Assembly (NCBI RefSeq): GCF_003334355.1
Contig: NZ_QOWP01000001.1
DNA from: Escherichia coli
GTDB taxonomy: Bacteria > Pseudomonadota > Gammaproteobacteria > Enterobacterales > Enterobacteriaceae
Reading direction: 5' to 3' (one strand)
DNA length: 64,000 nucleotides
The first letter of the stretch is position 1. Every line of letters starts with the position of its first letter. This document shows, piece after piece, positions 192-43,685 of the stretch. Under the pieces are notes generated by a model, which saw only the letters and a list, made by a program, of their open reading frames with translations, ran no database searches and was not told the DNA's origin. A program made the translations under genes and the position numbers.

Positions 192-265
192 TGGAGCGGG
201 CGAAGGGAATCGAACCCTCGTATAGAGCTTGGGAAGCTCTCGTTCTACCATTGAACTACGCCCGC
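192..265 (-). tRNA. glyU: tRNA-Gly (anticodon CCC), 74 nt including encoded CCA
   Basis: Reverse complement reads GCGGGCGTAGTTCAATGGTAGAACGAGAGCTTCCCAAGCTCTATACGAGGGTTCGATTCCCTTCGCCCGCTCCA; cloverleaf arms pair, anticodon loop CTTCCCAAG, T-loop GGTTCGATTCC. The 74-aa ORF at 93..317 overlaps it and is spurious. Confidence 0.9.
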
Positions 266-34821: not shown

Positions 34822-34863
34822 AAAACCCCGACATTTGCCGGGGTTATGAGCATAACGTAATGC

Positions 34864-36381
34864 TTATTTCACCGGACGCATCGCCGGGAACAGAATAACG
34901 TCGCGGATGGTATGGCTGTTGGTGAACAGCATTACCATACGGTCGATACCAATCCCCAGACCTGCTGTCGGCGGTAAGCCATGTTCCAGTGCGGTGACGT
35001 AATCTTCATCGTAGAACATCGCTTCGTCGTCACCTGCATCTTTCGCGGCAACCTGATCCAGGAAGCGCTGCGCCTGATCTTCCGCGTCATTCAGCTCGCT
35101 AAAGCCGTTACCGATTTCACGACCACCAATGAAGAACTCAAAGCGGTCTGTGATTTCCGGGTTAACGTCGTTACGACGCGCCAGCGGAGAAACTTCTGCC
35201 GGATATTCAGTAATGAAGGTCGGCTGAATCAGATGTGCTTCTGCCACTTCTTCGAAGATCTCGGTAACGATACGGCCCAGACCCCAGCTCTTCTCAACGT
35301 GGATGCCGATAGATTCAGCAATCGCTTTTGCAGAGTCGAAGTTGTCCAGATCCGCCATGTCGGTTTCCGGGCGATATTTCTTGATCGCTTCACGCATGGT
35401 CAGTTTTTCGAACGGTTTACCGAAGTCCAGCGTCACGTCGCCGTAGGTCACTTCCGTCTTACCGAGAATATCCTGTGCCAGAGTACGGAACAGCGATTCG
35501 GTCAGCTCGATCAGATCTTTGTAATCTGCGTAAGCCATATAGAGTTCCATCATGGTGAACTCTGGGTTATGACGTACGGAAATACCTTCGTTACGGAAGT
35601 TACGGTTGATTTCGAATACACGCTCGAAGCCACCGACCACCAGACGCTTGAGGTACAGTTCCGGCGCGATACGCAGGTACATGTCAAGATCCAGCGCGTT
35701 ATGATGGGTGATAAACGGACGCGCAGCCGCACCGCCTGGGATCACCTGCATCATCGGCGTTTCAACTTCCATAAAGCCGCGATTTACCATGAACTGGCGA
35801 ATGCCAGAGAGGATCTGCGAACGCACTTTAAAGGTGTTGCGGGATTCATCGTTAGAGATGAGATCCAGATAACGCTGACGATAGCGCGCTTCCTGATCCT
35901 GCAAGCCGTGGAATTTGTCCGGCAGCGGACGCAGTGCTTTGGTCAGCAGACGCAGCTCGGTGCAGTGGATAGACAGTTCGCCGGTTTTGGTTTTGAACAG
36001 TTTACCTTTCGCGCCGAGGATGTCGCCGAGATCCCATTTTTTGAACTGCTCGTTGTAAACGCCTTCCGGAAGATCGTCACGGGCAACGTACAGCTGAATA
36101 CGACCGCCAACGTCCTGCAGGGTAACAAAAGAGGCTTTACCCATAATACGGCGGGTCATCATGCGGCCAGCAACGGCGACTTCGATGTTCAGCGCTTCCA
36201 GTTCTTCGTTCTCTTTACCGTCGAATTCTGCGTGCAATTGGTCAGAGGTATGATCGCGACGGAAATCGTTCGGGAAGGCAATTCCCTGCTCACGCAGGTT
36301 CGCCAGCTTCTCACGACGCGTTTTCAGTTCATTGTTAAGATCGACTACCGCGTCAGCGCCCTGTGCGTGTTGTTCAGACAT
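34864..36381 (-). CDS. lysS: Lysyl-tRNA synthetase (class II), constitutive
   Basis: 505-aa ORF; class II aaRS motifs; 9 bp downstream of prfB in the prfB-lysS operon arrangement. Confidence 0.96.
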
Positions 36382-36390
36382 GTTGGTTCC

Positions 36391-37489
36391 TCATAACCCT
36401 GCTTTCAAACTTGCTTCGATAAATTGATCCAGGCTGCCGTCCAGCACGGCCTGCGTGTTGCGGGTTTCTACCCCGGTGCGCAGATCTTTAATGCGGGAGT
36501 CATCAAGGACATAAGAACGAATCTGGCTGCCCCAGCCGATGTCAGATTTGTTATCTTCCATCGCCTGTTTCTCAGCATTTTTCTTCTGCATCTCCAGTTC
36601 ATAAAGCTTCGCTTTCATCTGCTTCATGGCCTGGTCTTTGTTCTTGTGCTGGGAACGGTCGTTCTGGCACTGGGTCACGATCCCGGTCGGGATGTGGGTA
36701 ATACGCACCGCAGATTCGGTACGGTTAACGTGCTGACCGCCCGCGCCGGACGCGCGATAAACGTCAATGCGCAAATCCGCCGGGTTGATTTCGATATCAA
36801 TATCATCATCAACTTCCGGGTAAACAAACGCAGAGCTGAACGACGTATGGCGACGACCGCCGGAGTCAAACGGGCTCTTACGCACCAGGCGGTGAACGCC
36901 AGTTTCTGTACGCAGCCAGCCGTAAGCGTAATCGCCGGAGATTTTGATCGTCACGGATTTAATACCCGCCACTTCACCTTCCGACTCTTCGATGATTTCA
37001 GTTTTGAAACCACGCGATTCTGCCCAGCGCAGATACATACGCTCAAGCATGCTCGCCCAGTCCTGTGCTTCCGTACCGCCAGACCCCGCCTGAATATCGA
37101 GGTAGCAGTCGGCGCTGTCATATTCGCCAGAGAACATACGGCGGAACTCAAGCTGCGCCAGTTTTTCTTCCAGGGCGTCGAGTTCAGCAACGGCTTCGTT
37201 AAAGGTTTCTTCGTCGTCAGCTTCTACAGCCAGTTCCAGCAGACCAGAAACATCTTCCAGCCCCTGTTTCATTTGGTCGAGGGTGTCGACAACGGCTTCG
37301 AGGGAGGAACGCTCTTTACCCAGCGCCTGTGCGCGTTCGGGTTCGTTCCAGACATCCGGCTGTTCCAGCTCGGCGTTTACTTCTTCCAGACGCTCTTTCT
37401 TGGCGTCGTAGTCAAAGATACCCCCTAAGAACGTCGGAGCGTTCCGTGAGGTCCTGAATGCGATTATTTACCGGATTAATTTCAAACAT
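36391..37489 (-). CDS. prfB: Peptide chain release factor 2, expressed via programmed +1 ribosomal frameshift
   Basis: ATG at 37489 gives [25 protein letters not shown], then in-frame TGA at 37412..37414 within CTT TGA C preceded by the SD-like AGGGGG; the +1 frame continues [12 protein letters not shown] to the stop at 36391 (365 aa total). GGQ motif present (SGAGGQHVN). Confidence 0.95.
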
Positions 37490-37579
37490 GGTCTGATTTC
37501 TTTTATTGAGCTAGTCAAAATGCGGTGATAAGAGCGGGATTGTACCCAATCCACGCTCTTTTTTATAGAGAAGATGACG

Positions 37580-43519: not shown

Positions 43520-43685
43520 CATTTATCGCCTGATGCGACGCTGACTCGTCTTATCATGCCTGGGATTTGATACCTTTATCACAACAGGGGCGAGGCCCGT
43601 AAGTCGGATAAGGCGTTCACGCCGCATCCGGCGGTTGCGCTCCGATGCCTGATGCGACGCTGACGCGTCTTATCATGCCTACAAA
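43520..43685. repeat. REP/BIME cluster (three REP units)
   Basis: gcctgatgcgacgctgactcgtcttatcatgcctgg, cggataaggcgttcacgccgcatccggcg and gatgcctgatgcgacgctgacgcgtcttatcatgcctac; the first and third are near-identical direct copies. Confidence 0.8.

Follow-up and report, generated by a model that had tools for sequence, protein, structure and literature searches.

A predicted canonical +1 programmed frameshift site in prfB of an Escherichia coli contig, compared with known prfB loci

The programmed frameshift of prfB, the gene for release factor 2 (RF2), has been known for decades, and its principle is common to several other recoding systems. In eukaryotic antizyme, in yeast Ty1 and Ty3 and in dnaX, as in prfB, a slow codon in the A site is combined with a P-site tRNA that can re-pair with the message. 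In dnaX an internal Shine-Dalgarno (SD) sequence also serves as stimulator, like in prfB, although the stimulated shift there is -1. Otherwise, the systems differ from prfB in direction, SD spacing, sensor and gene. The sensor in prfB is its own product, RF2, acting at the stop codon in the A site. For the E. coli protein, residues 1-25 were reportedly found by Craigen et al. in 1985 to be fused to Asp26.

The mechanism, as summarised in PMC12421855, comprises an RF2-dependent pause, pairing of the message with the anti-SD, displacement of the E-site tRNA and a +1 slip on CUUU. That paper, a recent survey of prfB in more than 12,000 genomes, gives the frameshift in 64% of 12,753 genomes. It cites figures of ~70% and ~87% from earlier, smaller surveys, and names Persson and Atkins (1998), Baranov (2002) and Bekaert (2006) for earlier surveys of the motif. 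A site identical to the one described here has been studied in its native E. coli locus by ribosome profiling, which gave ~28% frameshifting in K-12 and ~21% with the Ala246 (B-type) allele; with the latter, frameshifting was thus slightly lower, and RF2 levels were lower also (PMC5373646).

Here we consider prfB in a 64,000-nt stretch of E. coli DNA (contig NZ_QOWP01000001.1, assembly GCF_003334355.1), referred to below as the window. The initial annotation of this DNA had proposed the classic RF2 +1 frameshift site, and the proposal is backed by the anatomy of the site, by the identity of the product as RF2 and by a RefSeq annotation of "programmed frameshift". Judged from these, the site is almost certainly E. 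coli prfB with its canonical autoregulatory +1 programmed ribosomal frameshift. It has the same CTT AGG GGG TAT CTT TGA C as E. coli prfB b2891, with the stop at codon 26 and 25 + 340 codons, and lies in the same neighbourhood, recJ-prfB-lysS; the allele alone differs from the K-12 reference. Compared with the motif across Bacteria (PMC12421855), the window shows no notable difference, and each of its elements has the form most frequent in the sample of RF2 genes described below. It should be noted that the sequences analysed here show how the site is built, what the joined product is, how the gene is annotated and how the site is conserved, both within E. coli and across bacteria; that ribosomes shift there, that they do so depending on the concentration of RF2 and that the SD and the E site play a part is taken from the literature.

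Two reading frames and one product

The gene lies on the minus strand and is divided between two frames. The first (ORF1, 37412-37489) begins with an ATG read directly at 37489-37487 and has 25 sense codons followed by an in-frame UGA as codon 26; its translation corresponds to RF2 residues 1-25. The second (ORF2, 36391-37413) is in the +1 frame. It opens with GAC at 37413 (Asp26), comprises RF2 codons 26-365, that is, 340 sense codons, and ends with TGA at 36393-36391. The coordinates that had been proposed for the start, for the 25 codons and for CTT TGA C with UGA at 37412-37414 were all verified on the minus strand, as was, by translation from GAC 37413, a +1 frame of 340 codons ending at 36391.

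An uninterrupted single-frame RF2 ORF, which would speak against a frameshift, was sought and none was found. In the frame of the body of the protein, a TAA lies 19 codons 5′ of the junction and no start codon follows it before the junction is reached, and the 0 frame ends with the stop at codon 26; hence no RF2 ORF can be read in a single frame. The program-made list of ORFs contains a 25-aa ORF (37412-37489) and a 293-aa ORF (36391-37272), the latter starting from internal Met73. The earlier remark that the ORF track shows the downstream frame only is correct in that the listed downstream ORF is truncated and begins at Met73.

When the two frames are joined, the predicted product of 365 aa scores 525.9 bits against the NCBIfam model for prfB, TIGR00020 (cut-off 370). 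Models for RF1 give 304-306 bits with the same protein, below their cut-offs of 400-423. The solved E. coli RF2 (PDB 1GQE) aligns with the joined protein from end to end (1-365) with 364 of 365 residues identical, the 25 residues of ORF1 included; the upstream frame, the fit of which to the RF2 N-terminus had been in question, matches it at 25 of 25 positions. The functional motifs are in place in the translation: the SPF motif for stop-codon recognition (S205-P206-F207) at 36868-36876 and the stretch from Ala246 (codon 36751-36753) through the catalytic GGQ (G250-G251-Q252; YRASGAGGQ) at 36733-36753, both on the minus strand. Going by its sequence, the predicted 365-aa product is the class-I release factor RF2 of E. 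coli and not RF1, PrfH or ArfB.

The two ORFs might instead be translated separately, with AGGGGG as the ribosome-binding site for a truncated RF2 and ORF1 as an independent leader peptide. The hexamer is a plausible SD, and the body frame does have an ATG, that of Met73 (37272). That codon, however, is 150 nt downstream, and close enough to AGGGGG for initiation the body frame has no ATG, GTG or TTG; the TTG at 37415-37413 belongs to the third frame. In solved structures, moreover, the RF2 chains have 365 residues, of which residues 1-25 match ORF1, and other Enterobacterales conserve the ORF1 sequence as part of RF2. The probability of separate initiation is, in our estimate, negligible, and joining of the frames by a programmed shift is the preferred reading.

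Anatomy and proposed operation of the shift site

The elements of the site follow one another closely on the minus strand. An internal SD-like AGGGGG (37421-37426) is followed by the spacer TAT (37420-37418), and then by the slippery CUU-U (CTTT, 37414-37417), in which the CTT codon occupies 37417-37415; the re-pairing of the P-site tRNA-Leu from CUU to UUU is known from the literature. The stop is the RF2-specific TGA (37414-37412), and with C at 37411 it gives the weak termination context UGAC (37411-37414). The SD-like element and the C after UGA had been singled out for confirmation, and both are present (AGGGGG at 37426-37421, C at 37411). The element had been placed 3 nt upstream, which holds when the distance is counted from the CUU codon but not when counted from UGA (6 nt).

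With up to 1 mismatch allowed, the motif AGGGGGNNNCTTTGAC matches the window once, where 0.06 matches would be expected; of 100 shuffles used as chance control, 6 had at least one match. Chance is excluded by the location of the motif, which is placed exactly where the two frames must join for full-length RF2. The hexanucleotide CTTTGA as such is not rare, with 34 occurrences in the window, 8 of which read CTTTGAC. A purine-rich element at the same spacing is found only at the prfB site.

RNA structure does not stand out at the shift site. The fold energy around the site is the same as that of shuffled sequences (z = -1.17), and so is that of the 82 nt 3′ of the site (z = -0.36), where no downstream stimulator is proposed. 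The absence of a significant fold fits an SD-driven +1 shift that operates without a downstream stimulator. A scan of 2 kb around the site with Rfam, which has no family for the prfB frameshift element, gave no match at a permissive E-value. Genes for the 16S rRNA and tRNA-Leu(GAG) are absent from the window, its only tRNA gene being that for tRNA-Gly(CCC) (192-265, minus strand). Pairing of AGGGGG with the anti-SD tail of the host 16S rRNA and the reading of CUU by tRNA-Leu would follow from the organism being E. coli.

With these elements, the site would be expected to operate as follows. The ribosome would start at ATG 37489, read 25 codons and pause, the P site being occupied by tRNA-Leu on CUU and the A site by UGA in its weak UGA-C context. 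With ample RF2, termination at UGA would release a peptide of 25 residues; with little RF2, the pause at UGA would be longer. Pairing of AGGGGG with the anti-SD tail of 16S rRNA would then help to displace the tRNA in the E site, and tRNA-Leu in the P site would slip one base 3′, re-pairing from CUU to UUU. This would bring GAC (Asp26) into the A site, and translation of 340 more codons would yield the full-length 365-aa RF2. RF2 would thereby set the rate of its own synthesis.

In place of a +1 slip of tRNA-Leu, the codon UGA26 might be passed by readthrough or by some different shift, such as -2 or hopping. Readthrough is excluded by the continuation of the 0 frame, which has 31 unrelated codons before it stops. 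A -2 shift is a different matter: it yields the same downstream frame, and the sequence alone cannot separate it from +1. The CTT-T that permits CUU to UUU re-pairing is, however, near-invariant, and the 3-nt SD spacing is fixed, across phyla, as a +1 slip predicts. Published mutagenesis also favours +1, according to the summary in PMC12421855. We regard the other routes as highly improbable and retain the +1 slip of tRNA-Leu on CUUU.

Alleles of prfB and conservation of the site

The closest comparison is with E. coli PSS-12, to which positions 192-64000 of the window are collinear and 99.98% identical. The identity is 100% at the nucleotide level for prfB and also across a 1.4-kb region that includes it. 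RefSeq records the PSS-12 gene as a CDS in two pieces, named "peptide chain release factor 2", and adds the note "programmed frameshift"; recJ is upstream of it and lysS downstream. The gene of K-12 MG1655 (b2891) is likewise annotated as a two-piece CDS. It differs from that of the window at 10 nt, only one of the changes being non-synonymous: Thr246 (YRTSGAGGQ) in K-12 vs. Ala246 (YRASGAGGQ) in the window. Ala246 is the canonical and more active form of RF2, Thr246 being the allele of K-12; the presence of Ala246 thus means that the window is not K-12.

In a comparison of five E. coli alleles with the window, every nucleotide difference falls outside the shift site. The nearest are at nt 42 and nt 82 (TAC to TAT) of the gene, and both are synonymous. 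The differences in this small sample are clustered at nt 469-1030, and only two are in the first 460 nt.

Among complete E. coli genomes, the 1.4-kb region matches in 5426 of 5426, with one copy in each. The 60 nt around the site are at least 95% identical in all 5426 genomes and 100% identical in 4410. For the 30 nt that end at UGA-C, an exact match of at least 28 nt is found in 5417 of the 5426. The remaining nine lack the 28-nt exact word in the 30-nt site; the surrounding 60 nt are still at least 95% identical there. One of the prfB copies is in a record labelled as a plasmid.

Conservation beyond the species was examined in a sample of RF2 genes drawn independently of the site. Species-representative genomes were searched with a degenerate DNA pattern for PFDxxxRRHTSF, the RF2-specific SPF loop, which is 540 nt 3′ of the shift site. 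The pattern gave at least 120 loci; 108 of the loci listed extended far enough upstream for evaluation. A junction was accepted under a strict rule: CTT had to stand directly before a stop of the 0 frame, the body frame of RF2 had to open at the second base of that stop, and the distance to Pro206 had to be 165-190 codons. A relaxed rule that took any 0-frame stop let in 13 probable chance junctions and was dropped for the strict one. A classifier that kept the last candidate per locus was dropped as well, as it returned spurious non-CTT junctions at wrong distances.

Under the strict rule, a CTT-stop +1 junction is present in 79 of 108 RF2 genes (73%) among the matches listed, which span many phyla. 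This agrees with the published survey figures. The distance from the junction to Pro206 is 171-184 codons in the 79 genes and exactly 180, as in the window, in 56 of them (again among the matches listed). The stop at the junction, among the same listed matches, is TGA in 78 of 79 and TAA in one, and the base that follows it is C in 70. A hexamer NGGRGG with a 3-nt spacer is found in 57 of the 79, AGGGGG being the commonest version (18 genes); the commonest spacer is TAT and the commonest length of ORF1 is 25 codons, all among the matches listed. By comparison with these 79 listed junction genes, each element of the site in the window has its most frequent form. The shift site is the same in Citrobacter, Enterobacter and Photorhabdus, and the ORF1 peptide is nearly identical there.

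It is against this background that an artefactual origin of the frame break has to be weighed. A sequencing or assembly indel, or an inactivating mutation that has left prfB a pseudogene, could produce an in-frame stop with a one-base change of frame, and to a naive ORF caller it would look the same as a programmed site. The same break, however, is present in essentially all complete E. coli genomes, and it falls at the homologous codon in 73% of the RF2 genes among the matches listed, from many phyla. Furthermore, RF2 is essential, and E. coli has a single copy of prfB per genome. The conservation of the break refutes an indel or a pseudogene, to which we give next to no probability, and a functional prfB with a programmed +1 shift is retained.

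A few members of the sample stand apart in one way or another. Two RF2 genes that require a +1 shift show GTT-TGA in place of CTT-TGA, together with GGAGG at the 3-nt spacing: those of Candidatus Pantoea edessiphila (L127, AGGAGGTATGTTTGAT) and of an uncultured gammaproteobacterial MAG (L095, CGGAGGTTGGTTTGAC). Both loci are very A+T rich (G+C of 26 and 29%, respectively) and both genomes are reduced. The variant with a Val codon (GTT) is not among the exceptions given in the accessible part of PMC12421855. Two MAGs labelled Actinomycetota (L043, GGTGATTACCTTTGAA; L090, AGGGGCTATCTTTGAG) have a CTT-TGA +1 junction 180 codons before Pro206. The motif is described as absent from Actinomycetota in PMC12421855, and the two may be mislabelled bins or deep-branching lineages. 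Finally, two contigs of one MAG, Gammaproteobacteria REEB272, have an RF2 gene each, with a near-identical site (CGGGGGTTTCTTTGAG), either from duplication of prfB or from the mixing of two strains in one bin.

The prfB frameshift site is already known and is annotated in public genomes, and it offers no new biology. Its value here is that of a quality check: a textbook recoding event, which naive ORF callers split in two, can be recognised from raw sequence. One could still ask whether the 25-residue peptide of ORF1 has a function of its own, or whether Ala246 shifts the autoregulatory set-point enough to matter for the physiology of the strain. On published rates of frameshifting, most passes over the site would end with release of the peptide. 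Nothing specific in the window suggests an own role for the peptide or a physiological effect of Ala246, and we consider either to be very unlikely.

The surroundings of prfB and other features of the window

Downstream of prfB on the same strand is lysS, the gene for lysine-tRNA ligase (34864-36381, minus strand), the ATG of which (36381) comes 9 nt after the prfB stop. A GAGGA ahead of this ATG overlaps the prfB stop (TGAGGAACCAACATG, 36381-36393, minus strand). The close spacing suggests that the genes are co-transcribed as a prfB-lysS operon, possibly with translational coupling; if so, the frameshift could also affect the expression of lysS. After lysS, a consensus scan picks up a hairpin with a T-run that resembles an intrinsic terminator (34824-34845, minus strand) and is likely to be the end of the prfB-lysS transcription unit.

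On the upstream side, the 90-nt spacer between recJ and prfB has a hairpin of 31 nt and 13 pairs (AAGAGCGUGGAUUGGGUACAAUCCCGCUCUU, 37530-37560, minus strand), which is more stable than shuffled sequences (z = -3.44) and has no clear T-run. A simple scan of the spacer for a sigma-70 consensus found no promoter. The hairpin could be a terminator or processing element of recJ, or a part of the 5′ leader of prfB.

Elsewhere in the window, three RNA features on the plus strand match Rfam families at the gathering score: 6S RNA (ssrS, 57190-57373); a Sib antitoxin RNA (58022-58172), at the PSS-12 counterpart of which an Ibs toxin gene is annotated; and naRNA4, an element of the REP type, in the trhA-ygfZ spacer (43602-43679). 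At the other end of the window, the identity to PSS-12 stops at the 3′ end of the tRNA-Gly(CCC) gene: positions 1-191 differ, and PSS-12 has a gene for a site-specific integrase there. The region 1-265 thus looks like the insertion point of a tRNA-linked island with a content different from that of PSS-12.
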